Positions 1 through 40,712 of a stretch of 64,000 nt of DNA are shown here, piece by piece (within the stretch, counting starts at the first letter, position 1; the number at the start of each line of letters is the position of its first letter). The notes under the pieces were generated by a model that saw nothing but the letters and a program-made list of their open reading frames with translations, was not told where the DNA came from and made no database searches. The translations under genes were made by a program, and so were the position numbers. The stretch lies in the NCBI RefSeq assembly GCF_057098645.1, contig NZ_CM169472.1; one strand, given 5' to 3'.

Positions 1-803
1 GGTTTTTTCGGTTCAATCACCGCCTGCTGACGAGCTGGACGCGTAGTGGCCGGACGTTCAGCGGTTTGCGTTTTCGCCGTGTCACGCGATGCATTGCCAT
101 TGCGTACTGGCGCGACAGTTGCTGGTTCAGTCGGCAATGTAGAATTGACCGCCACATTGTTCAACTGTTGCTGATTTTGTGGCTGGGTCAGCGCATTGTT
201 CAGGTCACCCTGCACTTCAACACGTTGTTGACCATCCGTTGCCGCCGGGGTTTGCCCTTGAGTCGGCGTAGAAGAGATCGGCGGCAGAGAAACATCCTGC
301 TGAGTATTTTCCGCAGACGTGGTTCCCGGCGCTGGCTGCACGCCATTGGCCTGATCGGTCGCATTGCCAGCAAGATCAATACTCTTCTCGCCAGACGCGG
401 TTTGATCGCTGGAAGAGGTCGAGGGGGCTTTTAGCGCAGAACCGATACCGATGATCAACAGCAGTAGAACCAGAATGCCGACGCCCATCATCATATACTG
501 ACGAGAAGCGGGTTTACTGGCTGCTTTTTTGCGCTTACGCGGACGACGCTCTACGCGCTCTTCATCCACAGTTTCATCTTCGGATTCGTCAATTTCTTCT
601 TCGATTTCCGGTTCCTCATTGCGCTCTTTTTGCGCACGAGTCGGACGGCGATCGTCAGTGTCATCAAGTTCAATATCATCAAAATTGATCTGCGGTTCGC
701 CACGTTCAGTACGCTCAGAACGTTCAGAAGATTGACGAGAACGACCAGTACGACGATCGCTGGGATCGGGTTTCAGCTCGTCTTCTGGTTTGAATTCATC
801 CAT
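1..803 (-). CDS. damX: Cell division protein DamX, N-terminal part only (gene continues beyond window start; C-terminus missing)
   Basis: Reverse complement of 781-803 reads ATG GAT GAA TTC AAA CCA GAA GA (MDEFKPED...), matching the DamX N-terminus as I recall it; frame stays open to position 1. Not in the ORF track because it is truncated by the window edge. Confidence 0.8.
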
Positions 804-894
804 TTAACACCCCACTAAAAGGTTAATGCTTACCACGTTGCAATTAACCTGAAGCTAATAGACCACTTGATAAGCGGCCTGACCTTTCTTGTTG

Positions 895-1983
895 TTACGC
901 TGATTGACAATCGGCAATGGCGTTAAGAACAAGCTCGTGCGAAACGCCGCTGCGAACTTCACTCTTACCAATTGCCAACGGAAGAATTAAGCGCATCTCT
1001 CCCGCAAGGACTTTCTTGTCACGCAGCATATGCGGTAAATACGCCTGCGCGGACATTTCGCGCGGCCCATTGACCGGTAACCCAGCCCGCGTGAGCAGGG
1101 TTATAATACGCTGCGTTTCGGCAGAACTAAACTGCCCGAGACGTTCCGACGTCCGCGCCGCCATCACCATACCCGCAGCGACCGCGTCACCATGTAACCA
1201 ATTGCCATACCCCATTTCAGCTTCAATGGCATGACCAAAGGTGTGTCCCAGATTCAGTAAAGCACGTAACCCGGTTTCGCGCTCGTCGGCGGCGACAACT
1301 TCTGCCTTCAGTTCACAACAACGGCGAATACAGTACGCCATTGCCGGACCGTCCAGACGCAACAACGCATCCAGATTCTCTTCCAGCCAGTTAAAAAACG
1401 CACCGTCAAGAATAATGCCGTATTTGATGACTTCTGCCAGCCCCGACGCTAACTCACGCGGGGGAAGCGTTTTCAGACAGTCGAGATCCACCACCACTGA
1501 AGCAGGCTGGTAGAACGCGCCAATCATGTTTTTACCGAGGGGATGGTTGACCGCAGTTTTGCCGCCAACGGAGGAATCGACCTGCGACAGTAACGTCGTC
1601 GGGACTTGAATGAAACGAACACCGCGCTGATAACTCGCCGCCGCGAAGCCGGTCAGATCGCCCACTACGCCGCCGCCAAGCGCCACCAGCGTAGTATCGC
1701 GACCATGCGGCTTTTGTAACAACGCCGTAAAGACGGTATCGAGTACAGCCAGGCTTTTATACTGCTCGCCGTCAGGGAGGATAACGCTATCGACGTTAAC
1801 ACCCGCCTGTTCAAGTACGCCGCGGACCTTATCGAGATACAGAGGAGCCAGGGTTTCGTTGGTGACCAACATGACCTGCTCGCCCGATTTCAGCGGTAAG
1901 AATGAAGCTGGTTCATTAAACAAACCAGATGCGATGGTAATTGGGTAACTACGTTCCCCGAGAGTAACGACAATCCTCTCCAT
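895..1983 (-). CDS. aroB: 3-dehydroquinate synthase
   Basis: ORF-track 362 aa ORF; translation ([22 protein letters not shown]...) matches E. coli AroB in length and sequence as I recall it. Confidence 0.95.
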
Positions 1984-2039
1984 AACGCGACATCCACCTT
2001 AATTACTGTACCCGCAGACGAGTGTATATAAAGCCAGAA

Positions 2040-2561
2040 TTAGTTGCTTTCCAGCATGTGAATAATCTGGTTAGCGACCACTTTAGCGCTTTGATCATCA
2101 GTACGAATGGTCACGTCGGCAATCTCTTCATACAGCGGATTGCGTTCATTGGCCAACGCTTCCAGAACTTCACGTGGCGGTGTTTCAACGTGCAGCAACG
2201 GGCGTTTTTTATCACGCTGCGTGCGTGCAAGTTGCTTTTCGATCGTCGTTTCAAGATAAACGACAACGCCACGAGCGGAAAGACGGTTACGCGTTTCACG
2301 GGATTTCACAGAGCCGCCGCCAGTAGCCAGCACAATACCCTGTTTCTCGGTCAACTCATTGATGACCTTTTCTTCGCGATCGCGGAAGCCTTCTTCGCCT
2401 TCTAAATCGAAAACCCAGCCCACATCAGCTCCGGTTCGTTTCTCAATCTCTTGATCGGAATCGTAAAATTCCATATTGAGTTGTTGAGCTAACTGGCGCC
2501 CAATAGTGCTTTTTCCGGCACCCATAGGCCCAACCAGAAAGATATTGCGTTTCTCTGCCAT
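2040..2561 (-). CDS. aroK: Shikimate kinase I
   Basis: ORF-track ORF 2040..2762 trimmed to the internal Met ([19 protein letters not shown]..., Walker A) giving 173 aa; start codon is the complement of cat at 2559-2561. Confidence 0.92.
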
Positions 2562-2961
2562 TTTTTCGGTACTACTAAGACTATTCGTTAATGATAAACC
2601 CGCTTCGCTCAGAGAGCGCCGCAGGACATGAACTGAAACCTCATAAGATATTGCGAGAGTCAGACTGAAAATTATCTCAATACTCCAGCGGGTTTGGCAA
2701 CTGAATAAATCACCCATCCCTCTGCATATCTGGTCGCTGCAAGCGCGCTGCCTTGCTACCACCGCTCTGGCGATAAATCACCGGGTAAGATTAGCGTAAA
2801 AAAGACAGCAAAATGCCGCCTGAATGATAAATCATCATCATGGAACGCAGGCAGCGAAGAGCACCAACTCTCAAATCGGTACTCCTTGTATGCTAAATAC
2901 CTGCGCGCGTCAAATAGATGAAACACGTTCAGCGTAAAAACATTACCGCTTTTACGGCTGT

Positions 2962-4200
2962 TTACTCACTGGAAACCAGTCGTGGCGTGATAAACACCAC
3001 TAACTCGCGTCGTTCATCTTCTTTTCCGTCATGACGAAATAATTGCCCGAACCAGGGAATGTCGCCAAGCAACGGCACGCTATCCTGACCCGATTTATTT
3101 TTACGGGTAAAAATGCCGCCCAGCGCCAACGTTTCTCCGCTTTTGACCTCGACCTGCGTTTCGATCTCCTGCTTATCAATCGCCAGCACTTCGCCATCGG
3201 CCTGCTGTAGCACCTGCCCCGGAACGTTCTGGCTGATGTGTAATTTCAGCCGGATGCGACCTTTTTGTAACACCGTGGGCGTGACCTCCATCCCCAGGAC
3301 GGCCTCTTTAAATTCCACCGACGTCGCGCCACTTTCCCCGCTGGAAACCTGATATGGAATTTCGCTCCCCTGTTTAATGCTGGCAGGCTGAAGATGTGAG
3401 GCCAGCAGACGCGGACTAGCGATAATATCCAGCTGCTGTTTTTGTTCGAGCGCAGAAAGCTCAAGATCCAGCAAACGTCCGTTGATGCGCCCAATGTTAA
3501 AACCGACATGCGTTGTCGCCGTCGCTACGGAGAGGTCGCTGCCAAGCGTGGTGACTTGCCCAACGCCACCAGCTTGTTGCGCATCGGCCAGCGTCCATTT
3601 CACGCCTAACTCACGCAAACTTTTTTCATTAATGGTGACAATATGCGCCGACAGCTCAACCTGCCCGACCGGCAGATCCATTTGCGCTGCCCACTGTTCA
3701 AGGGCGCTTAACGCCGTTTTGTTATCTCGTAGCAAAAGGCGATTGGTGCGTTTATCGACGGTCATACTCCCTTTGGCACTCAGTAGCTTTTCCCCAGCTT
3801 TCGCCAGCTCTCCGGCGTCGGCGTATTGCAGAGTAATATTGCGATTTTCCAGCGGCAGATTTGCCTGCGCCCGCGCCTGCTCCGCTTCCTGGCGGGCGAT
3901 ATTGTCATTCTGCCAGGCAATGGAATGCACTGAGAGAATGTTGCCCTCCTGGCGCGTTATCAGTCCGGCGCTTTTCACTACAGTTTGTAGTGCCTGCTTC
4001 CAGGGAACATCTGTTAGATGTAACGACACCGTACCGCTGACGTCTGGCGACACCACCAGGTTCAACTTCTCCTGTTCAGCCAGCGCCTGCAACACCTGAG
4101 CTACCGGAACGTCATCCACCATCAGCGTCACTTTTTGCGGCTTTGCCGCCTGTACGCCGGGTATCAGCATCAACAGTAGTGCGGCTATCCATTGCTTCAT
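2962..4200 (-). CDS. hofQ: Secretin-family DNA utilization protein HofQ (ComE/PilQ-like)
   Basis: 412 aa ORF with signal-peptide-like N-terminus and secretin C-terminal domain; position downstream of hofMNOP. Confidence 0.93.
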   Translation of the reverse strand: MKQWIAALLLMLIPGVQAAKPQKVTLMVDDVPVAQVLQALAEQEKLNLVVSPDVSGTVSLHLTDVPWKQALQTVVKSAGLITRQEGNILSVHSIAWQNDNIARQEAEQARAQANLPLENRNITLQYADAGELAKAGEKLLSAKGSMTVDKRTNRLLLRDNKTALSALEQWAAQMDLPVGQVELSAHIVTINEKSLRELGVKWTLADAQQAGGVGQVTTLGSDLSVATATTHVGFNIGRINGRLLDLELSALEQKQQLDIIASPRLLASHLQPASIKQGSEIPYQVSSGESGATSVEFKEAVLGMEVTPTVLQKGRIRLKLHISQNVPGQVLQQADGEVLAIDKQEIETQVEVKSGETLALGGIFTRKNKSGQDSVPLLGDIPWFGQLFRHDGKEDERRELVVFITPRLVSSE

Positions 4201-8922: not shown

Positions 8923-8946
8923 AAAAAGGCGCTTCGGCGCCTTTTC
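8923..8946 (+). terminator. Intrinsic terminator after mrcA (stem AAAAGGCGC / GCGCCTTTT, loop TTCG, then T-run)
   Basis: Perfect GC-rich hairpin immediately after the mrcA stop codon followed by TTTT. Confidence 0.7.
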
Positions 8947-9964: not shown

Positions 9965-12100
9965 ATGAGCACCATTGTGATTTTTTTAGCTGCTTTGCTG
10001 GCCTGCTCACTACTTGCGGGATGGCTGATAAAAGTGCGATCCAGACGGCGTCAGCTGCCCTGGACCAACGCCTTCGTGGATGCGCAAACGCGTAAACTCA
10101 CACCTGAAGAACGTAGCGCCGTTGAAAATTATCTTGAGAGCCTGACGCAGGTATTACAGGTGCCTGGCCCAACGGGAGCCAGCGCGGCACCGATCTCTCT
10201 GGCGCTGAATGCCGAAAGCAACAACGTCATGATGCTGACACACGCTATCACGCGTTACGGCATCTCTACCGACGATCCGAATAAATGGCGTTACTACCTC
10301 GATTCGGTAGAAGTCCACCTGCCCCCCTTCTGGGAACAGTACATCAACGATGAGAATACCGTTGAACTGATTCATACCGATTCGCTGCCGTTGGTTATTT
10401 CACTCAACGGTCATACGCTGCAGGAGTACATGCAGGAAACGCGCGGCTATGCCTTGCAACCTGTTCCGTCCACGCAGGCGTCGATTCGCGGGGAAGAGAG
10501 TGAGCAAATCGAGCTACTCAATATTCGCAAAGAAACGCATGAAGAGTATGCGCTGAGTCGTCCGCGCGGGCTGCGTGAAGCGTTGCTGATCGTCGCCTCC
10601 TTTCTGATGTTCTTTTTCTGCCTGATTACCCCGGATGTATTTGTTCCGTGGCTGGCAGGCGGCGCATTACTGCTGCTGGGCGCAGGTCTGTGGGGGCTAT
10701 TCGCCCCCCCGGCAAAATCCTCCCTGCGGGAAATTCATTGTCTGCGCGGTACACCCCGTCGTTGGGGATTGTTTGGCGAAAACGATCAGGAACAGATCAA
10801 CAATATTTCACTCGGTATTATCGACCTGGTCTATCCCGCACACTGGCAGCCATACATTGCTCAGGATCTCGGTCAACAAACCGATATCGATATCTATCTC
10901 GACCGCCATGTAGTGCGTCAGGGACGATATCTTTCGCTGCATGATGAAGTAAAAAACTTTCCGTTACAGCACTGGCTGCGCAGTACGATTATCGCTGCGG
11001 GCTCGCTGCTGGTGCTGTTTATGCTGTTATTCTGGATCCCGCTGGATATGCCGCTGAAATTCACTCTCTCATGGATGAAAGGCGCGCAGACCATTGAAGC
11101 CACCAGCGTAAAACAACTGGCTGACGCTGGCGTGCGGGTAGGCGATACATTGCGTATTAGCGGTACGGGAATGTGTAATATTCGCACTTCCGGAACCTGG
11201 AGCGCGAAAACCAATTCACCTTTTTTACCGTTTGACTGCTCGCAGATCATCTGGAATGACGCCCGCTCATTACCATTACCAGAATCTGAACTGGTCAACA
11301 AAGCGACGGCATTGACTGAAGCAGTTAATCGCCAGCTGCACCCTAAACCGGAAGATGAATCTCGCGTCAGCGCCTCATTACGTTCAGCAATTCAAAAATC
11401 CGGCATGGTATTGCTTGATGATTTTGGCGACATTGTACTGAAGACAGCGGATCTGTGTTCTGCCAAAGATGACTGTGTGCGACTGAAAAATGCGCTGGTC
11501 AATCTCGGCAACAGTAAAGACTGGGACGCGCTGGTAAAACGCGCCAACGCCGGGAAGCTCGATGGCGTGAATGTGTTATTACGCCCGGTGAGTGCGGAAT
11601 CGCTGGATAACCTTGTGGCAACCTCCACCGCGCCGTTTATCACGCATGAAACGGCGCGAGCGGCACAATCACTAAACAGTCCGGCCCCCGGCGGATTCCT
11701 GATTGTCAGCGACGAAGGCAGCGATTTTGTTGATCAGCCCTGGCCTTCGGCATCACTTTACGACTACCCGCCGCAAGAACAGTGGAACGCTTTCCAGAAA
11801 CTGGCACAAATGCTGATGCATACGCCGTTTAACGCCGAGGGTATCGTCACAAAAATCTTCACTGACGCCAATGGTACGCAGCATATAGGCCTTCATCCGA
11901 TCCCGGATCGTTCCGGCCTGTGGCGCTATCTCAGCACCACATTGCTGCTACTGACGATGCTGGGTAGCGCCATTTACAATGGCGTACAGGCCTGGCGTCG
12001 TTACCAGCGTCATCGCACTCGCATGATGGAGATTCAGGCCTATTATGAAAGCTGCCTGAACCCGCAACTGATCACCCCTTCAGAAAGCCTTATCGAATAA
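9965..12100 (+). CDS. igaA: Inner-membrane regulator of Rcs phosphorelay IgaA (YrfF)
   Basis: 711 aa ORF with N-terminal TM helix and multiple TM segments; matches IgaA length and position upstream of yrfG-hslRO. Confidence 0.93.
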   Translation: MSTIVIFLAALLACSLLAGWLIKVRSRRRQLPWTNAFVDAQTRKLTPEERSAVENYLESLTQVLQVPGPTGASAAPISLALNAESNNVMMLTHAITRYGISTDDPNKWRYYLDSVEVHLPPFWEQYINDENTVELIHTDSLPLVISLNGHTLQEYMQETRGYALQPVPSTQASIRGEESEQIELLNIRKETHEEYALSRPRGLREALLIVASFLMFFFCLITPDVFVPWLAGGALLLLGAGLWGLFAPPAKSSLREIHCLRGTPRRWGLFGENDQEQINNISLGIIDLVYPAHWQPYIAQDLGQQTDIDIYLDRHVVRQGRYLSLHDEVKNFPLQHWLRSTIIAAGSLLVLFMLLFWIPLDMPLKFTLSWMKGAQTIEATSVKQLADAGVRVGDTLRISGTGMCNIRTSGTWSAKTNSPFLPFDCSQIIWNDARSLPLPESELVNKATALTEAVNRQLHPKPEDESRVSASLRSAIQKSGMVLLDDFGDIVLKTADLCSAKDDCVRLKNALVNLGNSKDWDALVKRANAGKLDGVNVLLRPVSAESLDNLVATSTAPFITHETARAAQSLNSPAPGGFLIVSDEGSDFVDQPWPSASLYDYPPQEQWNAFQKLAQMLMHTPFNAEGIVTKIFTDANGTQHIGLHPIPDRSGLWRYLSTTLLLLTMLGSAIYNGVQAWRRYQRHRTRMMEIQAYYESCLNPQLITPSESLIE

Positions 12101-12164
12101 CACGTTTGCGCGGCAGGTTATGCTACCCTGTCGCGCAAATTGCTTCACTCTGGAGATTTCCCTC

Positions 12165-12833
12165 ATGCATATCAACATTGCCTGGCAGGACGTAGATACC
12201 GTTCTGCTGGATATGGACGGCACGTTGCTCGACCTCGCCTTCGATAACTATTTCTGGCAAAAGCTGGTGCCTGAAACATGGGGCGCGAAAAACGGGGTCA
12301 CGCCACAGGAAGCGATGGAATATATGCGCCAGCAATATCACGACGTACAGCATACGCTAAACTGGTACTGTCTTGATTACTGGAGTGAGCAACTGGGTCT
12401 GGATATCTGTGCGATGACCACCGAGATGGGACCGCGTGCCGTACTGCGTGAAGATACCATTCCGTTTCTTGAGGCACTGAAAGCCAGCGGTAAGCAGCGA
12501 ATTTTGCTCACCAATGCGCATCCGCACAACCTGGCGGTAAAACTTGAGCATACCGGTCTGGACGCACACCTTGATTTATTACTTTCCACCCACACATTTG
12601 GTTATCCGAAAGAGGATCAGCGGTTATGGCATGCGGTGGCCGAAGCTACGGGTCTGAAAGCTGAAAGAACGCTGTTTATTGATGACAGCGAAGCGATTCT
12701 CGATGCTGCCGCGCAATTTGGTATTCGTTACTGCCTCGGCGTGACTAATCCTGACTCAGGGATTGCCGAGAAACAGTATCAACGCCATCCGTCACTGAAT
12801 GACTACCGCCGCCTGATCCCCTCGCTAATGTGA
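12165..12833 (+). CDS. yrfG: HAD-family GMP/IMP nucleotidase YrfG
   Basis: ORF 12120..12833 trimmed to MHINIAWQDVDTVLLDMDGTLLD (HAD motif I DxDGT), 222 aa. Confidence 0.9.
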   Translation: MHINIAWQDVDTVLLDMDGTLLDLAFDNYFWQKLVPETWGAKNGVTPQEAMEYMRQQYHDVQHTLNWYCLDYWSEQLGLDICAMTTEMGPRAVLREDTIPFLEALKASGKQRILLTNAHPHNLAVKLEHTGLDAHLDLLLSTHTFGYPKEDQRLWHAVAEATGLKAERTLFIDDSEAILDAAAQFGIRYCLGVTNPDSGIAEKQYQRHPSLNDYRRLIPSLM

Positions 12834-12843
12834 AGGAGACGCC

Positions 12844-13245
12844 ATGAAAGAAAAACCTGCTGTTGAGGTTCGACTGGATAAATGGCTATGGGCTGCCCGT
12901 TTTTATAAAACCCGCGCGCTGGCCCGTGAAATGATTGAAGGCGGTAAGGTGCATTACAACGGGCAGCGCAGCAAGCCGAGCAAAATCGTCGAGCTGAATG
13001 CCACGCTCACTCTGCGCCAGGGAAATGACGAACGCACGGTGATTGTAAAGGCGATTACTGAACAGCGTCGCCCCGCCAGCGAGGCAGCCTTGCTGTATGA
13101 AGAGACTGCGGAAAGTGTAGAGAAACGCGAAAAAATGGCGCTGGCACGTAAACTTAATGCCTTAACCATGCCGCACCCGGACCGACGCCCGGACAAAAAA
13201 GAGCGCCGCGACCTGTTACGATTTACACACGGCGACAGTGAATAA
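12844..13245 (+). CDS. hslR: Heat shock protein 15 (ribosome-associated, S4 domain)
   Basis: 133 aa ORF MKEKPAVEVRLDKWLWAARFYKTRA... Confidence 0.95.
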   Translation: MKEKPAVEVRLDKWLWAARFYKTRALAREMIEGGKVHYNGQRSKPSKIVELNATLTLRQGNDERTVIVKAITEQRRPASEAALLYEETAESVEKREKMALARKLNALTMPHPDRRPDKKERRDLLRFTHGDSE

Positions 13246-13263
13246 CTGTTACCTGCAAGAGAG

Positions 13264-14148
13264 ATGATTATGCCGCAACATGACCAATTACATCGCTATC
13301 TGTTTGAAAATTTTGCCGTTCGCGGCGAACTGGTAACCGTTTCGGAAACCCTGCAACAGATCCTTGAGAACCACGATTATCCGCAGCCCGTTAAAAACGT
13401 GCTGGCAGAACTGCTGGTTGCGACCAGCCTGTTAACCGCTACGCTGAAGTTTGATGGTGATATCACCGTACAGCTGCAGGGCGACGGTCCGATGAATCTG
13501 GCGGTTATTAACGGTAACAATAACCAGCAAATGCGCGGTGTGGCGCGCGTGCAGGGCAAAATTCCAGAAAATGCCGACCTGAAAACGCTGGTCGGCAATG
13601 GTTACGTGGTGATCACCATTACCCCGAGCGAAGGTGAACGCTATCAGGGCGTGGTGGGTCTGGAAGGTGATACCCTGGCGGCCTGCCTGGAAGATTACTT
13701 TATGCGTTCTGAACAGCTGCCGACGCGCCTGTTTATTCGCACCGGCGACGTAGACGGCAAACCGGCTGCGGGCGGTATGTTGTTGCAGGTAATGCCTGCG
13801 CAAAATGCCCAGCAGGACGACTTTGACCACCTGGCGACGCTAACCGAAACCATCAAAACCGAAGAACTGCTGACCTTACCGGCAAACGAAGTGTTGTGGC
13901 GTTTGTATCACGAAGAAGAGGTGACGGTTTACGATCCGCAGGATGTGGAGTTCAAATGCACCTGCTCGCGTGAACGTTGCGCCGATGCGCTGAAAACGCT
14001 GCCTGATGAAGAAGTCGATAGCATCCTGGCGGAAGATGGCGAAATTGACATGCATTGTGATTACTGCGGTAACCACTATCTGTTCAATGCGATGGATATT
14101 GCTGAAATCCGCAACAACGCGTCTCCGGCAGATCCGCAAGTTCATTAA
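13264..14148 (+). CDS. hslO: Redox-regulated chaperone Hsp33
   Basis: 294 aa ORF with C-terminal CxC...CxxC zinc centre (CTCSRERC ... CDYCGNHY); start may be the Met at 13270. Confidence 0.93.
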
Positions 14149-14156
14149 TGAGTATG

Positions 14157-14184
14157 TCCGGCAGAGAGGGCTCTGCCGGATTTT
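14157..14184. terminator. Bidirectional intrinsic terminator between convergent hslO and yhgE
   Basis: 10-bp perfect stem TCCGGCAGAG / CTCTGCCGGA with 4-nt loop, followed by TTTT. Confidence 0.65.
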
Positions 14185-14210
14185 ACGACTAATACACCTG
14201 ATGCGCTTTG

Positions 14211-15935
14211 TCACTCATTCAGATTCACATCCAGCCTTTCACCATCCACTACAAGATCGCGCCACGCTTTAGGCTTCGTTCCCAGTTTTCCATCCTTCGC
14301 AGCTGTGAGTAATTTTTCTTTCGTTATATCACGCGGAAGTAAACTCATCGTAAGCTCTTGCCATTCTTTCTTGTCAGGATCAAAGCCATAGACAATGTAT
14401 CTTTCATCATTAAAAGCAAACAGGATCCGCTCCGCCTGACCATCACTATTCAGATCTTGCTCGACCAGTACGCAGGCGTCTTTTTCAATACAGGTCATCA
14501 CGTTATAGCGTTCTTTGATTAATGCCGACCAGAATGCCGCATCCGGTTTGCCAGAACCTGGTGCAATTAACACATTTTCGGCTAATGATTTTTCCGACAC
14601 CACCTTCTGAAGACTTTGCTCCCCATCTAACGCCATCAGCAGATCCCACGCGCGTTTCGGGTCTTTCATAAACCCGGCATCGCTTTTCAGCGACTCAAGC
14701 GCCGCACGTCCATAGTGACCGCTCTGTTCGAGCATGTAGATAGTTACCTGGCCTGGCGTGTTTTTGCCGCTCTGATAACGCGCCATATGACTGTTCACGC
14801 TAATGCGCATACTGTCCAGCACCGGAGAATTAAGAAGCACCAGTATTACCAACACCAATAACGAAACTGCAAGGTTCACTTTGCCCTGAAGAACAAGGGG
14901 ATTTTGCCCTTTACGCCATAGGATACTGACAAAATACCCCAGCGACCATACCAGTAACACCAGCACCACCAGCGCGCCCTGCAAGCGGTCGACAGTCCAG
15001 CCGTACTGAGCGACCCGCAGCCATAACGCCCAGGCGGCGACGAACACATACAGCGGAGCAACCAGCAAAGCGGTTTTAATCAGGCAACGCAACGGCCCCG
15101 TCCAGGGAAGTGACGCTTTTTGCGGATCGCGGACAATAGCCATTAAGATCAATTGCAAAAAGGCCAGCGTTAACAGCAACCCAGCGGCGGAGATGTGGCG
15201 AGAAATCGCACTCAGGCCTGTAAACGGCAGGGTGATGATAAACATCAGGGTTAGCAATGATACTAACGGCAGCAACCCCGTGGCGATTAACGTGAACAAC
15301 TTTTGAATAGAGTCGATTAAACGTGACTGTGTTCGCGCGAGGATCACCGCCAGCGCGGTAACCAGACCTAATGTAAGATACATAAACCAGTCGGTTGCAA
15401 AAAAGAGCGTATTGAAAAACGTGATGCCAACAAGTTTAAACAACTCACCCCACAGTAAAAGCACCAGCCACGTCAGGCCATTGGCGAGAAAAATAACCTG
15501 TAATATAAGTACGTTATGCCATACTGACTGGTAAAAATAGCGATAGCGGCTACTGTCATTGCGGATACGAAGGCTTTGTTGTATCCACGGTAGCAACAAC
15601 ATTGCCATCAGCAGCAGATAGCAGCCAAAATCCCAAAGCGCCTTTTCAGCTCTCCAGGGGTTCATGCCATCAGTTTGCCACTTCAACCAGCCGCTCATCC
15701 CCAGCGTGGCAATAAACACCAGCGCCAGCCATCCCCAAAGGCGCTTCTGTTTAAAAGAGATCACGGAGAAGAGTAAAACGGATGAAAACGCAACGGTCGC
15801 AGGCACGCCATAAACAATCCAACTGTGATTTTTTCCGGCAAGCCAGGCGATCAACAGGTAGCAAACCAGCCCCTGAAGTAATCCGGTAGCAATCATCCCC
15901 CAGCGTGTTGCGGGTGAAAGTTCAACGTTATCCAT
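14211..15935 (-). CDS. yhgE: Inner membrane protein YhgE (putative transporter)
   Basis: 574 aa ORF with many TM segments; matches YhgE position and size. Confidence 0.9.
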
Positions 15936-16313
15936 GTTGGTTATCCAGAATCAAAAGGTGGGTTAATTATCGCATCCGGGCAGTAGTATTTTGCTTTTTT
16001 CAGAAAATAATCAAAAAAAGTTAGCGTGGTGAATCGATACTTTACCGATTGAATTTGCATCAATTTCATTCAGGAATGTGATTCCACTCACAATATTCCC
16101 GCCATATAAACCAAGATTTAACCTTTTGAGAACATTTTCCACACCTAAAATGCTATTTCTGCGATAATAGCAACCGTTTCGTGACAGGAATCACGGAGTT
16201 TTTTGTCAAATATGAATTTCTCCAGATACGTAAATCTATGAGCCTTGTCGCGGTTAACACCCCCAAAAAGACTTTACTATTCAGGCAATACATATTGGCT
16301 AAGGAGCAGTGAA

Positions 16314-17936
16314 ATGCGCGTTAACAATGGTTTGACCCCGCAAGAACTCGAGGCTTATGGTATCAGTGACGTACATGATATCGTTTACAACCCAAGCTAC
16401 GACCTGCTGTATCAGGAAGAGCTCGATCCGAGCCTGACAGGTTATGAGCGCGGGGTGTTAACTAATCTGGGTGCCGTTGCCGTCGATACCGGGATCTTCA
16501 CCGGTCGTTCACCAAAAGATAAGTATATCGTCCGTGACGATACCACTCGCGATACTTTCTGGTGGGCAGACAAAGGCAAAGGTAAGAACGATAACAAACC
16601 TCTCTCTCCGGAAACCTGGCAGCATCTGAAAGGCCTGGTGACCAAACAGCTTTCCGGCAAACGTCTGTTCGTTGTCGACGCCTTCTGTGGTGCGAACCCG
16701 GATACTCGTCTTTCCGTCCGTTTCATCACCGAAGTGGCCTGGCAGGCGCATTTTGTCAAAAACATGTTTATTCGCCCGAGTGATGAAGAGCTGGCAGGTT
16801 TCAAACCAGACTTTATCGTTATGAACGGCGCGAAGTGCACTAACCCGCAGTGGAAAGAACAGGGTCTGAATTCCGAAAACTTCGTGGCGTTTAACCTGAC
16901 CGAGCGCATGCAGCTGATTGGCGGCACCTGGTATGGCGGCGAAATGAAGAAAGGGATGTTCTCGATGATGAACTACCTGCTGCCGCTGAAAGGTATCGCT
17001 TCTATGCACTGCTCCGCCAACGTTGGCGAGAAAGGCGATGTTGCGGTGTTCTTCGGCCTTTCCGGCACCGGTAAAACCACCCTTTCCACCGACCCGAAAC
17101 GTCGCCTGATTGGCGATGACGAACACGGCTGGGACGATGACGGCGTGTTTAACTTCGAAGGCGGCTGCTACGCAAAAACTATCAAGCTGTCGAAAGAAGC
17201 GGAACCTGAAATCTACAACGCTATCCGTCGTGATGCGTTGCTGGAAAACGTCACCGTGCGTGAAGATGGCACTATCGACTTTGATGATGGTTCAAAAACC
17301 GAGAACACCCGCGTTTCTTATCCGATCTATCACATCGATAACATCGTTAATCCGGTTTCCAAAGCGGGTCACGCAACGAAAGTTATCTTCCTGACCGCAG
17401 ACGCCTTTGCTGTGCTGCCGCCGGTTTCTCGTCTGACTGCCGATCAAACCCAGTACCACTTCCTCTCTGGCTTCACCGCCAAACTGGCCGGTACTGAGCG
17501 TGGCATCACCGAACCGACGCCAACCTTCTCCGCTTGCTTCGGCGCGGCATTCCTGTCGCTGCACCCGACTCAGTACGCAGAAGTGCTGGTGAAACGTATG
17601 CAGGCGGCGGGCGCGCAGGCTTATCTGGTTAACACTGGCTGGAACGGCACTGGCAAACGTATCTCGATTAAAGATACCCGCGCCATTATCGACGCCATCC
17701 TCAACGGTTCGCTGGATAATGCAGAAACCTTCACTCTGCCGATGTTTAACCTGGCGATCCCAACCGAACTGCCGGGCGTAGACACGAAGATTCTCGATCC
17801 GCGTAACACCTACGCTTCCCCGGAACAGTGGCAGGAAAAAGCCGAAACCCTGGCGAAACTGTTTATCGACAACTTTGATAAATACACCGACACCCCTGCG
17901 GGTGCCGCGCTGGTAGCGGCTGGTCCGAAACTGTAA
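16314..17936 (+). CDS. pckA: Phosphoenolpyruvate carboxykinase (ATP)
   Basis: ORF 16245..17936 trimmed to [22 protein letters not shown]... (540 aa); AAGGAG ribosome-binding site at 16301-16306; kinase-1a motif GLSGTGKTT. Confidence 0.96.
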
Positions 17937-17983
17937 TGATTTGAAGCTGGAGAATATCTATCCAGTATCTTATAGAAAGCAAA

Positions 17984-18007
17984 ACGGGAGGCACCTTCGC
18001 CTCCCGT
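17984..18007. terminator. Bidirectional intrinsic terminator between convergent pckA and envZ
   Basis: 9-bp perfect stem ACGGGAGGC / GCCTCCCGT, 6-nt loop, T-rich runs on both strands. Confidence 0.7.
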
Positions 18008-18011
18008 TTAT

Positions 18012-20080
<2,069 letters not shown>

Positions 20081-20307
20081 TGTTTGTACTCCCAAAGGTT
20101 CGCAACAATTTGTAAGCGTGTATTCTTAAAAAAGCTCACGTTCGTCACCAGCTAAATCTGGTATGAATTTCAGCCTAAATTGTTACAAAGCATATTAAAC
20201 AGCAGCTTAAGTATACAATTTATTCGGCGAAACATTATTGATTCTGTTGATATGATCACGTTATACCCAATGTGCGCATTATCAAACAGACAAAGGGAAT
20301 CAACGAG

Positions 20308-20784
20308 ATGAAAACGCCCCTGGTTACCCGGGAAGGGTATGAAAAACTCAAACAAGAGCTTAATTATCTCTGGCGTGAAGAACGCCCGGAGGTCACAAAA
20401 AAGGTGACCTGGGCCGCAAGTCTGGGCGACCGCAGCGAAAATGCTGACTATCAGTATAATAAAAAGCGTCTGCGTGAAATCGACCGTCGCGTGCGCTATC
20501 TCACTAAATGCATGGAAAATCTCAAAATCGTCGATTACTCCCCTCAGCAGGAAGGCAAAGTCTTTTTTGGCGCGTGGGTGGAGATTGAAAACGACGATGG
20601 CGTGACTCACCGTTTCCGTATAGTCGGTTACGATGAAATTTTTGGCCGTAAAGATTACATCTCTATCGATTCCCCGATGGCTCGCGCATTGCTGAAAAAA
20701 GAGGTGGGCGATTTGGCGGTGGTGAATACCCCTGCCGGGGAAGCGAGCTGGTATGTTAATGCTATCGAGTACGTGAAACCGTAA
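20308..20784 (+). CDS. greB: Transcription elongation factor GreB
   Basis: ORF 20272..20784 trimmed to MKTPLVTREGYEKLKQELNYLW... (158 aa). Confidence 0.94.
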   Translation: MKTPLVTREGYEKLKQELNYLWREERPEVTKKVTWAASLGDRSENADYQYNKKRLREIDRRVRYLTKCMENLKIVDYSPQQEGKVFFGAWVEIENDDGVTHRFRIVGYDEIFGRKDYISIDSPMARALLKKEVGDLAVVNTPAGEASWYVNAIEYVKP

Positions 20785-20880
20785 GGAAGAGTCTTAACCT
20801 CCTGCCGATGGCTGGCATTTTTGCCAGCCAGTCCGTATAACTATCCCCTGATTTTTGATCCGATAAGATGAACTCAAACC

Positions 20881-23202
20881 ATGATGAATGATTCGTTCTG
20901 CCGCATTATTGCGGGTGAAATTCAGGCGCGCCCGGAACAGGTTGACGCTGCCGTTCGCCTGCTTGACGAAGGGAATACCGTGCCGTTTATCGCACGTTAT
21001 CGTAAGGAAATCACCGGCGGTCTGGATGACACGCAGTTGCGTAATCTGGAAACGCGTCTGGGATACCTGCGTGAACTGGAAGAGAGACGTCAGGCGATCC
21101 TCAAATCCATTTCCGAGCAAGGCAAACTCACCGATGATCTGGCGAATGCCATCAACGCCACCCTAAGCAAAACCGAACTCGAAGACCTCTACCTGCCCTA
21201 CAAACCTAAACGCTGCACCCGCGGGCAAATCGCCATTGAAGCAGGGCTTGAGCCGTTGGCTAACCTGCTGTGGAGCGATCCGTCACACACGCCAGAAGTC
21301 GCCGCTGCGCAATATATTGATGCCGATAAAGGCGTGGCAGATACCAAAGCCGCGCTGGACGGCGCGCGCTATATCCTGATGGAACGGTTTGCCGAAGATG
21401 CCGCGCTGCTGGCGAAAGTGCGTGATTATCTGTGGAAGAACGCGCATTTGGTTTCTACGGTGGTGAGCGGTAAAGAAGAGGAAGGGGCGAAATTCCGCGA
21501 CTATTTCGATCATCACGAACCGTTGTCCACGGTGCCTTCTCACCGCGCGCTGGCGATGTTCCGTGGGCGTAACGAAGGCGTACTTCAGCTTTCGCTGAAT
21601 GCCGATCCACAGTTCGATGAGCCGCCGAAAGAGAGCTATTGCGAGCAAATCATCATGGATCACCTTGGCCTGCGCCTGAACAATGCCCCGGCGGATAGCT
21701 GGCGCAAAGGCGTGGTGAGCTGGACGTGGCGCATCAAGGTGCTGATGCATCTGGAAACCGAACTGATGGGCACCGTGCGCGAACGTGCGGAAGATGAAGC
21801 AATCAACGTCTTTGCCCGTAACCTGCACGATCTGCTGATGGCGGCTCCAGCCGGACTGCGTGCCACGATGGGCCTCGATCCGGGTCTGCGTACTGGGGTA
21901 AAAGTGGCGGTAGTCGATGCAACCGGCAAACTGGTGGCGACCGATACCATTTACCCGCACACCGGACAAGCCGCAAAAGCAGCGATGACTGTTGCTGCGC
22001 TGTGTGAAAAGCATAACGTTGAACTGGTGGCGATCGGCAACGGTACAGCTTCCCGCGAAACCGAACGTTTCTATCTCGACGTGCAGAAGCAGTTCCCGAA
22101 AGTGACCGCACAGAAAGTGATCGTCAGCGAAGCTGGCGCGTCGGTTTACTCGGCTTCCGAGCTGGCAGCGCAGGAGTTCCCGGATCTCGACGTTTCGCTG
22201 CGTGGCGCGGTTTCTATCGCCCGCCGTTTGCAGGATCCGCTGGCGGAGCTGGTGAAAATCGATCCGAAATCTATCGGCGTAGGTCAGTATCAGCATGACG
22301 TCAGCCAGACGCAACTGGCCCGCAAACTGGATGCAGTAGTAGAAGACTGCGTAAACGCCGTTGGCGTCGATCTCAACACCGCTTCTGTTCCGCTATTAAC
22401 TCGCGTGGCGGGCCTGACGCGCATGATGGCGCAAAACATCGTGGCCTGGCGCGATGAGAACGGCCAGTTCCAGAACCGTCAGCAACTGCTGAAAGTCAGC
22501 CGTCTGGGGCCGAAAGCCTTCGAGCAGTGCGCGGGCTTCCTGCGCATTAACCACGGTGATAACCCGCTGGACGCCTCTACCGTTCACCCGGAAGCCTATC
22601 CGGTGGTGGAACGCATTCTGGCAGCAACACAGCAGGCACTGAAAGATCTGATGGGTAACAGCAGCGAACTGCGTAACCTGAAAGCGTCTGACTTTACTGA
22701 TGAAAAATTCGGTGTGCCGACAGTAACTGACATCATCAAAGAGCTGGAAAAACCGGGTCGCGATCCGCGTCCGGAATTTAAAACCGCTCAGTTTGCCGAT
22801 GGCGTCGAGACAATGAACGACCTGCAACCGGGTATGATCCTCGAAGGCGCTGTCACCAACGTCACCAACTTTGGCGCGTTTGTCGATATCGGCGTGCATC
22901 AGGACGGCCTGGTTCACATCTCTTCATTGTCGAACAAGTTTGTGGAAGATCCGCATACCGTGGTGAAAGCGGGCGACATTGTGAAGGTGAAAGTGCTGGA
23001 AGTGGATCTTCAGCGTAAACGTATCGCCCTGACTATGCGTCTGGACGAGCAGCCTGGCGAAACCAACTCTCGTCGCGGCGGCGGTAACGATCGCCCGCAA
23101 AACAACCGCCCGGCAGCCAAACCACGCGGTCGTGAAGCGCAGCCTGCCGGTAACAGCGCGATGATGGACGCGCTGGCGGCAGCGATGGGTAAAAAACGTT
23201 AA
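20881..23202 (+). CDS. yhgF: Tex-like transcription accessory protein YhgF (S1 domain at C-terminus)
   Basis: 773 aa [31 protein letters not shown]...; matches YhgF/Tex position after greB. Confidence 0.93.
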
Positions 23203-27593: not shown

Positions 27594-27863
27594 ATGCAGA
27601 CAGTGAAATTACGGCAACAAGGAGGAGCCATAATCGTTACTATCCCACGAGATCTTGCCACCGATCTTGGCTGGTCACCGGGCACAGAGCTTACCGTGGA
27701 GAAAAAGGGCGATAGCGTTAATTTGCGCGCCACAGAGCACAAACCTCGTGGGCGTCTTACCGTCGCGCAGTTGTTGAGCCAGATCGATGAAAACGAAATT
27801 AAGGCCTTAAATCAGTCCTCAGAAGGATGGGCTGAAGAGAAAAAAGGTAATGAAGCATGGTAA
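27594..27863 (+). CDS. MazE/ChpS-like (AbrB/SpoVT-fold) type II antitoxin
   Basis: 89 aa ORF MQTVKLRQQGGAIIVTIPRDLATDLGW...; swapped-hairpin-type N-terminus and acidic C-terminus; stop overlaps the downstream toxin start. Confidence 0.8.
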   Translation: MQTVKLRQQGGAIIVTIPRDLATDLGWSPGTELTVEKKGDSVNLRATEHKPRGRLTVAQLLSQIDENEIKALNQSSEGWAEEKKGNEAW

Positions 27864-28225
27864 AGGCACGGACGCCACATCGTGGTGAGATCTGGTGTTT
27901 TAACCCTGATCCGGTTGCCGGGCATGAACTTCGGGGTCCACATTATTGCATTGTGGTAACGGACAAAGAGCTCAACAATGTTTTAAAAGTTGCTATGTGC
28001 TGCCCGATTTCAACAGGGGCAAATGCGGCACGTTCCTCAGGGGTGACGGTGAACGTCCTCCCCCATGATACGCAAACCGGTAACCTGCATGGCGTTGTGC
28101 TCTGTCACCAGCTAAAAGCTGTCGATCTTATTGCCCGTGGCGCTAAATTTCATACCGTTGCCGATGAAGCATTGATTAGTGAGGTGATCGGTAAACTGGT
28201 GAATTTAATCGACCCACAACAGTAG
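27857..28225 (+). CDS. MazF/PemK/ChpB-family endoribonuclease toxin
   Basis: 122 aa ORF MVKARTPHRGEIWCFNPDPVAGHELRGPHYCIVV...HGVVLCHQLKAVDL; pattern parallels ChpBK/MazF (RGDIVLV.FDP..GHE...P.T......G.HGVVL.NQ....D); ATG overlaps the antitoxin stop (ATGGTAA). Confidence 0.82.
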   Translation: MVKARTPHRGEIWCFNPDPVAGHELRGPHYCIVVTDKELNNVLKVAMCCPISTGANAARSSGVTVNVLPHDTQTGNLHGVVLCHQLKAVDLIARGAKFHTVADEALISEVIGKLVNLIDPQQ

Positions 28226-32042: not shown

Positions 32043-32053
32043 TAACACTGACT

Positions 32054-32074
32054 GCCGGATGCATCGCATCCGGC
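32054..32074. terminator. Hairpin between convergent gntT and malQ (9-bp perfect stem GCCGGATGC / GCATCCGGC)
   Basis: Perfect dyad with 3-nt loop; no strong T-run, so possibly REP-like rather than a canonical terminator. Confidence 0.4.
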
Positions 32075-32086
32075 ATCAACCGCACT

Positions 32087-39951: not shown

Positions 39952-40236
39952 ATGAATATGAAACCGGAAAGCAAAGAAGCGCCAATCAATATCAGAGCGA
40001 AAGCCTCACAGCGTGACCTGATTGATATGGCAGCGAATCTGGTCGCAAAATCGCGCACTGATTTTATGCTGGATGCCGCATGCCGTGAAGCGCAAGACAT
40101 CTTATTAGATCAACGACTATTCATCCTTGATGACGAGCAATACGATGCGTTTCTCGCTGCCCTGGACGCCCCCATCACTGCTGAGCGTCAGGCCAAAATT
40201 AACGCGTTGATGAATCGTAAATCGCCATGGGAATAA
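39952..40236 (+). CDS. DUF1778-type (RHH, TacA/AtaR/KacA-like) type II antitoxin
   Basis: 94 aa ORF MNMKPESKEAPINIRAKASQRDLIDMAANLVAKSRTDFMLDAACREAQDILLDQRLF...; closely parallels the TacA/AtaR antitoxin pattern; 3' end overlaps the toxin start. Confidence 0.82.
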   Translation: MNMKPESKEAPINIRAKASQRDLIDMAANLVAKSRTDFMLDAACREAQDILLDQRLFILDDEQYDAFLAALDAPITAERQAKINALMNRKSPWE

Positions 40237-40712
40237 CGGCTCCTACTCCCCTAACGTCTGAACATAATCTGGCTGACTTTTGCTGTTCCGATCACGGGAT
40301 GAATGAATGGCTAAAAAAGAAAGCGTTAAAAAATCACAGCACCGGTCTGTCTCGTGTTTACGTTATCTGTATTGTCAATACCCGCCAGGTAATCGGCTAT
40401 TACTGCCTTTCTACAGGCAGTATTCAACGTAATTTGGCCCCTGGAGCCATGCGACGTAATGCTCCCGAATCGTTGCCTGTTGTCGTATTAGGCAGACTGG
40501 CAATTGATCAAGCCTGGGCAGGTAAAGGGTTGGGCGTCGCATTGTTGAAAGATGCAGTCTATCGCACAATGTCCATAGCTCAACAGGTAGGGGTTCGTGC
40601 GCTCATTGTTCATGCCTTAGACGATTCAGTACGCAATTTCTATCTGAAGTATGCCTTTGTACCTTCACCATTCCAGTCACTTACCTTACTGTATCCCATT
40701 ACTCTGGAGTAA
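40227..40712 (+). CDS. GNAT-family acetyltransferase toxin (TacT/AtaT/ItaT/KacT-like; predicted aminoacyl-tRNA acetyltransferase)
   Basis: 161 aa ORF with acetyl-CoA binding motif region (VLGRLAIDQAWAGKGLGVALLKDAV) and overall pattern shared with TacT; ATG lies inside the antitoxin 3' end (CCATGGGAATAA). Confidence 0.82.
   Translation: MGITAPTPLTSEHNLADFCCSDHGMNEWLKKKALKNHSTGLSRVYVICIVNTRQVIGYYCLSTGSIQRNLAPGAMRRNAPESLPVVVLGRLAIDQAWAGKGLGVALLKDAVYRTMSIAQQVGVRALIVHALDDSVRNFYLKYAFVPSPFQSLTLLYPITLE

Follow-up and report, generated by a model that had tools for sequence, protein, structure and literature searches.

The two convergent junctions hslO/yhgE and pckA/envZ each hold one inverted repeat, and the pair is with good probability made up of two different devices: a bidirectional intrinsic terminator at pckA/envZ (hairpin 2) and a leaky, unidirectional terminator of hslO with Rho as backup at hslO/yhgE (hairpin 1). 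Both lie in the window, a 64,000-nucleotide stretch of E. coli chromosome, and both junctions have the K-12 sequence apart from a single coding SNP each, in envZ and in yhgE respectively. The assignment draws on the stems, on the U content of the tail on each strand, on published RNA 3' ends from K-12, and on the recurrence of the two designs in other genera.

Architecture of the two junctions

Genes were annotated according to RefSeq for the identical strain 95-3192, and MG1655 positions were converted to window positions with an offset of 3516504. The convergent stop codons are separated by 62 nt at hslO/yhgE and by 75 nt at pckA/envZ, with one inverted repeat in each spacer (Table 1). Hairpin 1 starts 8 nt past the hslO stop, and in + strand RNA a G-U pair can lengthen its stem to 11 bp; hairpin 2 begins just 2 nt past the envZ stop (18012-18014) and features an 8-bp G+C-rich core, the A/T ends of the stem doubling as the A and U tracts. 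The first-pass annotation had reported one perfect inverted repeat per convergent junction and a 10-bp stem at hslO/yhgE, both of which are borne out by the inverted-repeat search; the 9-bp stem that it gave for pckA/envZ is real (17984-18007) but forms only the core of the 11-bp stem.

Table 1. Positions of junction features in the window
Feature	Position	Strand	Basis and remarks
hslO stop codon TAA	14146..14148	+	sequence; RefSeq annotation of identical strain 95-3192
Hairpin 1 tail on yhgE strand, CAUACUCAUU, not T-rich, no U tract	14147..14156	-	tail score at 48th percentile
Hairpin 1, perfect 10-bp stem TCCGGCAGAG/CTCTGCCGGA, loop AGGG	14157..14180 (arms 14157-14166/14171-14180)		folding; inverted-repeat search
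Short U tract UUUU then AC, site of hslO 3' terminus	14181..14186	+	tail score in top 0.7%; published terminus
C-rich, G-poor RNA (32-36% C, 10-18% G), candidate rut region	14187..14290	+	composition; antisense to yhgE 3' end
yhgE stop codon TGA	14211..14213	-	sequence; RefSeq annotation; 30 nt upstream of hairpin 1 in yhgE direction
pckA stop codon TAA	17934..17936	+	sequence; RefSeq annotation; 45 nt upstream of hairpin 2
U-rich tail for envZ transcripts, UUUUGCUUUCU	17974..17984	-	tail score in top 0.2%; terminator scan match
Hairpin 2, perfect 11-bp stem AAACGGGAGGC/GCCTCCCGTTT, 6-nt loop ACCTTC	17982..18009 (arms 17982-17992/17999-18009)		
U-rich tail for pckA transcripts, UUUAUUUA	18007..18014	+	tail score in top 0.3%
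Secondary read-through pck 3' end, 'pck Alternative primary', inside antisense envZ	18098..18108 (MG1655 3534602-12)	+	PMC10687069

On either strand, the RNA folds of both hairpins have energies between about -18.5 and -20.8 kcal/mol, and relative to dinucleotide shuffles their z-scores range from -4.4 to -6.5; the - strand of hairpin 1 folds at -18.5 kcal/mol with a z-score of -6.5. Both hairpins fall within the stem and loop sizes expected of intrinsic terminators (about 5-14 bp and 3-8 nt). Across the window, 8 distinct perfect hairpins have a stem of 9 bp or more, making 11 entries versus a shuffle mean of 1.8 entries, an excess of about six-fold, and four of the eight are located at convergent junctions. 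The gntT/malQ hairpin (32053-32075) has a stable stem with no U tract on either side.

The tails separate the two junctions. Each was scored by its rank among all 15-mers of the window: the + strand tail of hairpin 1 (TTTTACGAC) contains 4 T and scores in the top 0.7%, a marginal U tract, whereas the - strand tail (CATACTCATT) has 2 T in its first 8 positions and lies at the 48th percentile, which is background level. With the A/T pairs at the stem base counted as tract, the tails of hairpin 2 score in the top 0.3% on the + strand (TTTATTTA) and in the top 0.2% on the - strand (TTTTGCTTT). Symmetry of A tract and T tract is therefore seen at hairpin 2 (AAAA...TTTATTT) and not at hairpin 1 (GTATG...TTTT), and for lack of it hairpin 1 is not filed as a member of the bidirectional terminators. 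A consensus terminator scan flagged hairpin 2 on the - strand only and hairpin 1 on neither strand, and returned no terminator-like site for yhgE on the - strand. T-rich runs on both strands, as originally described for both junctions, are thus present at hairpin 2 but not on the - strand of hairpin 1.

Published RNA 3' ends and Rho-dependent regions

The K-12 3' termini considered here come from RNAtag-seq as well as Term-seq datasets analysed by TRS (PMC10687069, Supplementary Data 2-4). The signal of each is R = L/(L+D), L being the read starts within 3 nt and D those in the 67 nt downstream, and a high R means low local read-through; R is 0.91-0.99 across the three 'Primary' ends at the junctions (PMC10687069). 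These are the termini of hslO at + 3530689/90 (window 14185/14186; signal 0.93-0.98), of envZ at - 3534481-83 (window 17977-17979; 0.93-0.97) and of pck at + 3534515-18 (window 18011-18014; 0.91-0.99) (PMC10687069). Each of the three is 5-8 nt past a G+C core and falls inside a U-rich tract or at its end. The pck terminus overlaps the envZ stop codon, and as the pck and envZ ends are 33-38 nt apart the overlap of their mRNAs across hairpin 2 reaches 38 nt. The 'pck Alternative primary' end is listed at + 3534608/9, about 95 nt beyond the primary one (PMC10687069).

No yhgE 3' terminus appears in the published K-12 lists (PMC10687069); weak expression of yhgE may explain this, and the absence, as yhgE may be transcribed too weakly for an end to be called, is considered weak negative evidence. 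Adams et al. (PMC7815308, Supplementary file 1) give a curated Term-seq list that, searched by gene name and coordinate prefix, contains no 3' end at either hairpin while it does include a pck-internal end and a greB end; the hairpin ends are therefore not among the strongest of that dataset. A literature search for a pckA/envZ terminator returned nothing relevant, and no in vitro termination data were found for hairpins 1 and 2. An RNA 3' end mapped in vivo may mark either the point of termination or a stable stem at which exonucleases stopped trimming, and the mapping does not on its own tell the two apart.

Rho-dependent regions were taken from DirectRNA-seq with and without bicyclomycin, in which reads are counted over spans of 800 nt upstream and downstream of each site (PMC7815308, Supplementary file 2). 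Region 3530894(+) (window 14390) has a Rho score of 5.6 (p 1.6e-19), with 128 reads upstream and 32 downstream without the drug against 332 and 466 with bicyclomycin; region 3535269(+) (window 18765) has a score of 5.0, the corresponding counts being 89 and 13 without the drug and 203 and 149 with it (PMC7815308). The downstream count exceeds the upstream count at 3530894 under bicyclomycin, which is a caveat on reading it as read-through, and given the 800-nt spans part of the score at both regions could come from antisense transcription that begins within yhgE or envZ instead of read-through of the hairpins. These + strand regions indicate a leak past the hairpins, not a mechanism acting at the hairpins themselves. 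Past hairpin 1 the + strand RNA has a C/G ratio of about 3 over 100 nt.

Recurrence in other genomes

At pckA/envZ the same design of an A run, a GC stem and a T run is found in nine species with differing stem sequences, the carriers being E. coli, two Citrobacter, Kluyvera, four Enterobacter-like genomes and Yersinia. Hairpin 2 is homologous only to the Citrobacter stems; the others differ. At its stem base the Citrobacter hairpin differs by one double change, C:G to A:T, and because this single double change is anecdotal the case for hairpin 2 rests on the recurring architecture.

Hairpin 1 is present in 5423 of 5426 E. coli genomes, and most of the 30 lineages examined have a hairpin 1-30 nt past the hslO stop. 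The sequence past the hslO stop codon allows no alignment between genera; the terminator function after hslO is conserved and its sequence is not. The hslO-side hairpin is also found in many lineages that have no yhgE, where pckA lies co-directional downstream. A T tract is missing altogether from many hslO-proximal hairpins of other genera, and it is missing on the yhgE side in several relatives that do carry yhgE, including Citrobacter FP75 and E. cloacae. Some other E. coli have a longer hslO/yhgE spacer allele with REP-like sequence beside hairpin 1.

Toxin-antitoxin cassettes are repeatedly found at the pckA/envZ junction; 1331 of the 5426 E. coli genomes carry one, and such modules occupy the junction in E. 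coli, E. albertii, Serratia and Rahnella. The junction is thereby a recurrent toxin-antitoxin landing site, used in about a quarter of E. coli genomes, which is a modest point for comparative genomics.

Proposed mechanism and alternatives

In the favoured explanation, RNA of either strand at hairpin 2 folds into the same G+C-rich stem at about -20 kcal/mol, and the A run of one side serves as the U tract of the opposite strand, so that polymerase arriving from either gene would pause on a U-rich hybrid; it would then be released 5-8 nt past the G+C core, whether it came from the pckA or the envZ side. Termination in the pckA direction is incomplete; the read-through ends some 95 nt past the primary site and, within antisense envZ, by the action of Rho. 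Hairpin 1 probably terminates the hslR-hslO unit alone: with its strong stem and only four U it gives the defined hslO end at 14185/6 on the + strand and would leak, the leak being caught by Rho on the C-rich RNA immediately downstream. Toward yhgE, the same stem without a U tract is predicted not to act as an intrinsic terminator, and may be at most a pause, a roadblock or a stem that protects 3' ends; in that case Rho or collision would end yhgE transcription, within hairpin 1 or past it.

The reading of the first-pass annotation, in which both hairpins are shared bidirectional intrinsic terminators and hairpin 1 also ends yhgE by hairpin and U tract, is considered improbable. The perfect 10-bp stem of hairpin 1 does fold just as stably on the - strand (-18.5 kcal/mol, z -6.5), the 62-nt junction has no second strong hairpin, and no other terminator-like site follows yhgE on that strand; however, the - strand tail CAUACUCAUU is at background level (48th percentile), the published lists give no yhgE 3' terminus (PMC10687069), equivalent hairpins follow hslO where yhgE is absent, and Citrobacter FP75, E. 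cloacae and other yhgE carriers have no T tract on the yhgE side. Somewhat less improbable, though still unlikely, is that the mapped ends are processing products, Rho ending transcription downstream and 3'-to-5' exonucleases trimming the RNA back to protective hairpins, as Dar and Sorek (2018) described for Rho-dependent transcripts (PMC6061677). This would suit the significant Rho-dependent regions that follow both hairpins on the + strand, the mere four U of hairpin 1 before C-rich, G-poor RNA, and the lack of a T tract at many hslO-proximal hairpins of other genera. The three ends nevertheless fall where one would expect intrinsic release, 5-8 nt beyond the G+C core, the tails of hairpin 2 are U-rich on both strands, and the A-run/T-run symmetry is kept across genera despite differing stems, a symmetry for which a protective cap has no need.

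It has also to be considered that RNA polymerase collisions, head-on or trailing, drive termination at both junctions and that the stem-loop only fixes the position. A collision model of this kind was reportedly put forward for overlapping bidirectional termination sites by Ju et al. in 2019 with SEnd-seq. It was likewise set out by Wang et al. 2022 (bioRxiv 10.1101/2022.10.23.513370). Both sites do lie between convergent genes, the 33-38 nt pck/envZ overlap across a stem-loop is the geometry described for such sites, and for yhgE, which has no U tract, collision is one of the few mechanisms left. As the general explanation it is nonetheless poorly favoured: the site class is described as unlike intrinsic terminators while both strands of hairpin 2 show the canonical form, terminators of hairpin and tract also come after hslO in genomes whose next gene runs in the same direction, and simultaneous transcription from both sides is required when yhgE gave no callable 3' end. 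That the hairpins have no specific role, being palindromes formed by chance or members of a dispersed repeat like REP, is hardly credible; the REP-like sequence beside hairpin 1 in the longer spacer allele is the observation in its favour, and it is countered by the 11 hairpin entries seen against 1.8 in shuffles and by published RNA 3' ends that abut both hairpins. Each hairpin is single-copy in the window with up to 3 mismatches allowed, an 81-nt query of junction 1 matches a median of one place per genome, and a permissive E-value search of Rfam over 11000-21000 placed no family at either junction and gave two sub-threshold chance matches elsewhere. Both the dispersed-repeat and the chance-palindrome identity were rejected on the shuffles, the single-copy counts and the published 3' ends.

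Implications

The favoured division into one bidirectional and one unidirectional terminator retains shared bidirectional termination for pckA/envZ, with its symmetric A/T tracts, 3' termini on both strands and recurrence in other genera, and gives it up for hslO/yhgE, where the yhgE strand has no T run, hslO alone has a terminus and the hairpin exists without yhgE. Mapping of 3' ends, which the first-pass annotation had named as the check, was available from the published K-12 maps; it places the hslO, pck and envZ ends at the hairpins but gives none for yhgE. The description of the terminators as clean was too strong in view of the + strand Rho regions past both junctions and the pck read-through end about 95 nt on; the judgement that they are ordinary was correct, the terminator biology at both junctions being already known. 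With this, three transcription units (hslR-hslO, pckA and ompR-envZ) have their 3' boundaries set, a result of little import beyond annotation. It also advises that a perfect hairpin in a convergent spacer be checked for a tract on each strand before it is named bidirectional. The pckA 3' end that covers the envZ stop and the mRNA overlap of up to 38 nt could matter for antisense effects or for an interplay of ribosome and terminator; nothing unusual is suggested by the overlap.

yhgE is fast-diverging, absent from most Enterobacterales and located between the anciently adjacent hslO and pckA. A joint reading of the two junctions, offered tentatively and rather doubtful as a whole, is that yhgE has no terminator of its own and is stopped at the rear of the hslO hairpin without a U tract, and that terminator hairpins of convergent junctions may serve as fixed boundaries beside which small accessory cassettes land again and again. 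The candidate means by which yhgE would stop there are collision, a roadblock or Rho; if true, hairpin 1 would be a natural test case for termination free of a U tract. Under the same joint reading, the E. coli cassette may fill exactly the space from the pckA stop to the hairpin, and the retained envZ-side hairpin may be reused as its own terminator.

Comparison with known systems

Seen from the yhgE side, hairpin 1 is like the protective stems of Rho-terminated transcripts (PMC6061677) or of REP in having a stable stem with no U tract; it differs in that no yhgE 3' end is mapped at it, and both hairpins differ in being single-copy. The collision-type overlapping sites (Ju et al. 2019; Wang et al. 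2022) share with these junctions their location at convergent gene pairs, the stem-loop that lies in the overlap, and the uniform 3' ends on both strands, whereas hairpin 2 resembles an intrinsic terminator on both strands. On the + strand, hairpin 1 is comparable to a unidirectional terminator with Rho backup, having a strong stem, a short U tract, an end after UUUUA(C), and a Rho region and C-rich, G-poor RNA directly downstream; it differs in its only four U and in its convergent site, the other strand of which has no matching tract. Hairpin 2 departs from the standard bidirectional intrinsic terminator in its interrupted U tracts (UUUAUUUA, UUUUGCUUU), each partly paired in the stem, in its detectable read-through in the pckA direction and in its start 2 nt past the envZ stop; it is like that class in having one G+C-rich stem-loop between convergent stops, with an A run on one side and a T run on the other, and in the 3' ends of both strands, which fall a few nucleotides beyond the stem.

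Hairpins and U tracts at the two convergent junctions

The window is E. coli chromosome; strain 95-3192 (NZ_CP027362.1) is 100% identical over a 4.4-kb stretch surrounding both hairpins, and this stretch is present in 5424 of 5426 complete E. coli genomes. The gene layout was taken from the 95-3192 RefSeq annotation and the ORF list. Both junctions are the same in K-12 and the window over 161 nt, except for one SNP within yhgE and one within envZ, and coordinates convert by a fixed offset (window = MG1655 - 3516504); published K-12 transcript maps are therefore directly transferable. Elsewhere in the region, igaA/yrfF is an intact 711-aa ORF in the window (9965-12100); its RefSeq call in 95-3192 as a frameshifted pseudogene (CDS 9966-12100) may be a start-codon annotation artefact.

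The first-pass annotation described one perfect hairpin at each junction, with T-rich runs on both strands and shared bidirectional termination. An inverted-repeat search bears out the hairpins, with exactly one perfect repeat per convergent spacer; the 9-bp stem placed at 17984-18007 is real, but is only the core of the longer hairpin 2 stem. RNA folds of both hairpins on either strand reach about -18.5 to -20.8 kcal/mol, with z-scores of -4.4 to -6.5 versus dinucleotide shuffles. With a minimum of 9 bp for a perfect stem and loops of 3-8 nt, the window yields 11 entries (8 distinct hairpins) versus a mean of 1.8 in 100 shuffles, and half of the distinct hairpins lie at convergent junctions: mrcA/nudE, hslO/yhgE, pckA/envZ and gntT/malQ. 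Hairpins 1 and 2 are each present in one copy, neither matches an Rfam family, and both are real, beyond chance.

Each tail received a standard decaying T-weight score, which was ranked among the scores of all window 15-mers; the T-rich runs hold on both strands of hairpin 2, but at hairpin 1 the yhgE side does not rise above background. A simple consensus terminator scan gave a hit for hairpin 2 on the - strand alone and no hit for hairpin 1. The mrcA/nudE hairpin (8924-8945, AAAAGGCGC-TTCG-GCGCCTTTT), directly 3' of the mrcA stop, is of the textbook symmetric bidirectional type; its tails rank in the top 0.4% and 0.15%, and there are published 3' ends nearby on both strands (MG1655 3525451, +; 3525419, -). 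In contrast to hairpin 2, the perfect 10-bp REP-like hairpin between convergent gntT and malQ (32053-32075, TGCCGGATGC-ATC-GCATCCGGCA) has a T-rich tail on neither strand (30th and 35th percentile); a strong published - strand 3' end lies nearby (MG1655 3547879-82).

Coordinates of genes, hairpins, RNA 3' ends, Rho-dependent regions and junction variants (reads are upstream, downstream)
Feature	Window	Strand	MG1655	Detail	Source
hslO	end 14148	+			RefSeq annotation, ORF list
Hairpin 1	14157-14180			TCCGGCAGAG-AGGG-CTCTGCCGGA, perfect inverted repeat	
Hairpin 1 tail, hslO side		+		TTTTACGAC, top 0.7% of 15-mers	
Hairpin 1 tail, yhgE side		-		CATACTCATT, 48th percentile	
hslO primary end	14185/6	+	3530689/90	directly after UUUU	PMC10687069
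Rho-dependent region		+	3530894	210 nt beyond hairpin 1, antisense to yhgE; 128, 32 without drug; 332, 466 with drug; score 5.6; p 1.6e-19	PMC7815308
yhgE	14211-15935	-			RefSeq annotation, ORF list
pckA (pck)	16314-17936	+			RefSeq annotation, ORF list
envZ primary end	17977-79	-	3534481/83	6-8 nt beyond G+C core	PMC10687069
Hairpin 2	17982-18009			AAACGGGAGGC-ACCTTC-GCCTCCCGTTT, perfect inverted repeat	
Hairpin 2 tail, pckA side		+		TTTATTTA, top 0.3% of 15-mers	
Hairpin 2 tail, envZ side		-		TTTTGCTTT, top 0.2% of 15-mers	
pck primary end	18011-14	+	3534515-18	5-8 nt beyond core, across envZ stop codon	PMC10687069
pck alternative primary end	about 18104	+	3534608/9	weaker read-through end	PMC10687069
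envZ	18012-19364	-			RefSeq annotation, ORF list
Rho-dependent region		+	3535269	antisense to envZ; 89, 13 without drug; 203, 149 with drug; score 5.0; p 9.6e-9	PMC7815308
pckA/envZ stem, Citrobacter				AAAAAGGGAGGC...GCCTCCCTTTTT	
pckA/envZ stem, soil metagenome-assembled genome				AAAACCCGCCA...TGGCGGGTTTT	
pckA/envZ stem, Enterobacter BIGb0383				GAAAAGACCACC...GGTGGTCTTTTT	
820-bp cassette	replaces 45-nt spacer 17937-17981			L001 4338-5157	
Accessory stretches at pckA/envZ, other genera				L006 6124-10023; L021 6121-7006; L027 6109-7048; L012 6121-7735	
hslO/yhgE spacer alleles	14187-14210			L003 550-684; L002 550-2182	

RNA 3' ends and read-through

Termini were taken from Supplementary Data 2-4 of the TRS study of E. 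coli K-12 (RNAtag-seq and Term-seq; PMC10687069). The three primary ends (hslO, envZ, pck) have signals of 0.91-0.99; the signal is R = L/(L+D), where L is read starts at most 3 nt from the position and D those in the 67 nt downstream, a high R denoting little local read-through. A yhgE terminus is absent from every file of these data; published mapping supplies ends on both strands at hairpin 2 but for hslO only at hairpin 1. Measured between the mapped pck and envZ ends, the overlap of the two mRNAs across hairpin 2 is 33-38 nt. The curated Term-seq table of Adams et al. (PMC7815308) has a 3' end at neither hairpin; it lists a pck-internal end at MG1655 3532969 (window 16465, +), 151 nt into the ORF and classed as internal and not Rho-dependent, which is possibly a premature end or a processing site.

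On the + strand RNA just 3' of hairpin 1, C makes up 32-36% and G 10-18% of the first ~100 nt; C-rich, G-poor RNA is the composition preferred by Rho. DirectRNA-seq with and without bicyclomycin places two relevant + strand Rho-dependent regions past the hairpins (PMC7815308). Termination in the + direction is therefore not clean at either site, contrary to the first-pass description, and Rho ends what gets through; the 800-nt windows of that analysis are coarse and could also include antisense transcripts starting within yhgE or envZ.

Conservation and accessory genes

A genome-collection scan with PckA as query gave 80 loci, in which the convergent pckA/envZ order is retained across Enterobacterales. 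The A-run/GC-stem/T-run hairpin occurs at this junction in nine species; Citrobacter stems are homologous to that of E. coli and those of other species differ. Going by these comparisons, selection evidently keeps the bidirectional architecture, not the sequence.

At the other junction, a yhgE gene separates hslO from pckA only in E. coli, Citrobacter, Enterobacter cloacae, Kluyvera, Superficieibacter and one Enterobacter-like genome, with YhgE identity of 37-59% versus 86-96% for flanking proteins; in the remaining genomes without it, E. albertii, Yersinia, Vibrio, Aeromonas and Haemophilus among them, hslO is directly followed by pckA in the same orientation. The distribution of yhgE (DUF4153) is patchy and its divergence fast; E. 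albertii and most Enterobacterales, Vibrio, Aeromonas and Haemophilus lack the gene, and the E. albertii sequence is homologous to the region upstream of E. coli pckA only from ~290 nt before the pckA ATG. Alignment similarity ends exactly at the hslO stop codon. Most of 30 lineages have a hairpin 1-30 nt 3' of this stop regardless of the next gene, and many of these hairpins lack a T tract; a hairpin here is therefore a property of hslO rather than of the hslO/yhgE pair.

An 820-bp insert with a relE/parE-like toxin gene and nadS (HTH antitoxin) occupies the space from the pckA stop to hairpin 2 in 1331 of the 5426 complete E. coli genomes; the window strain lacks it. The homology breakpoint is window 17981: hairpin 2 still adjoins envZ, directly 3' of the nadS stop, and pckA gets a different terminator-like hairpin (CCCCTTATCC-AAAC-GGATAAGGGG, then TTTTTTT). 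The RelE/HTH pair recurs in E. albertii, accompanied by a further ~3 kb that includes a SUKH/SMI1-family gene. RHH (ribbon-helix-helix antitoxin) and PIN-domain modules occupy the junction in Serratia and Rahnella (a FitA-like RHH antitoxin in Serratia silvae, a VapBC-like RHH and PIN pair in Rahnella), and in Superficieibacter it holds 1.6 kb of unannotated ORFs. Accessory genes seem to land at this junction repeatedly.

The hslO/yhgE spacer has two E. coli alleles, a 62-nt form (window and K-12) and a 135-nt form with REP-like sequence (about 2370 genomes), between which the yhgE 3' end likewise varies; in strain 3385 an IS200/IS605-type element (insQ/tnpB and a truncated transposase) sits in the long allele downstream of hairpin 1. 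Two more small accessory modules lie at gene junctions (window 27594-28225 and 39958-40712): a MazE/MazF-type pair whose end is 15 nt from convergent bioH, and a DUF1778/GNAT (TacAT-like) pair flanked by malT and convergent rtcA. The first-pass annotation probably meant these by "accessory insertions".

Mode of termination

Hairpin 2 very probably acts as a bidirectional intrinsic terminator, with one palindrome supplying stem and U tract to polymerases from either the pckA or the envZ side. Polymerase collision (Ju et al.; Wang et al.) and Rho termination followed by trimming (PMC6061677) would be minor contributors at hairpin 2; both are possible at hairpin 1. The latter would be a unidirectional intrinsic terminator of hslR-hslO with Rho backup, and is probably leaky. 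From the yhgE side it presents a stem without a U tract, which would serve at most as a polymerase pause or as RNA-end protection; yhgE transcription may instead be stopped by Rho or by collision with hslO-side polymerases, or may run antisense into hslO. Shared termination is supported for pckA/envZ but not for hslO/yhgE, where the yhgE-strand tail is at background and only the hslO end is mapped.

The useful correction is that, on both sequence and data, bidirectionality applies to hairpin 2 only. There is no novelty of substance, all three 3' ends being already in public tables; bidirectional intrinsic terminators are textbook features.
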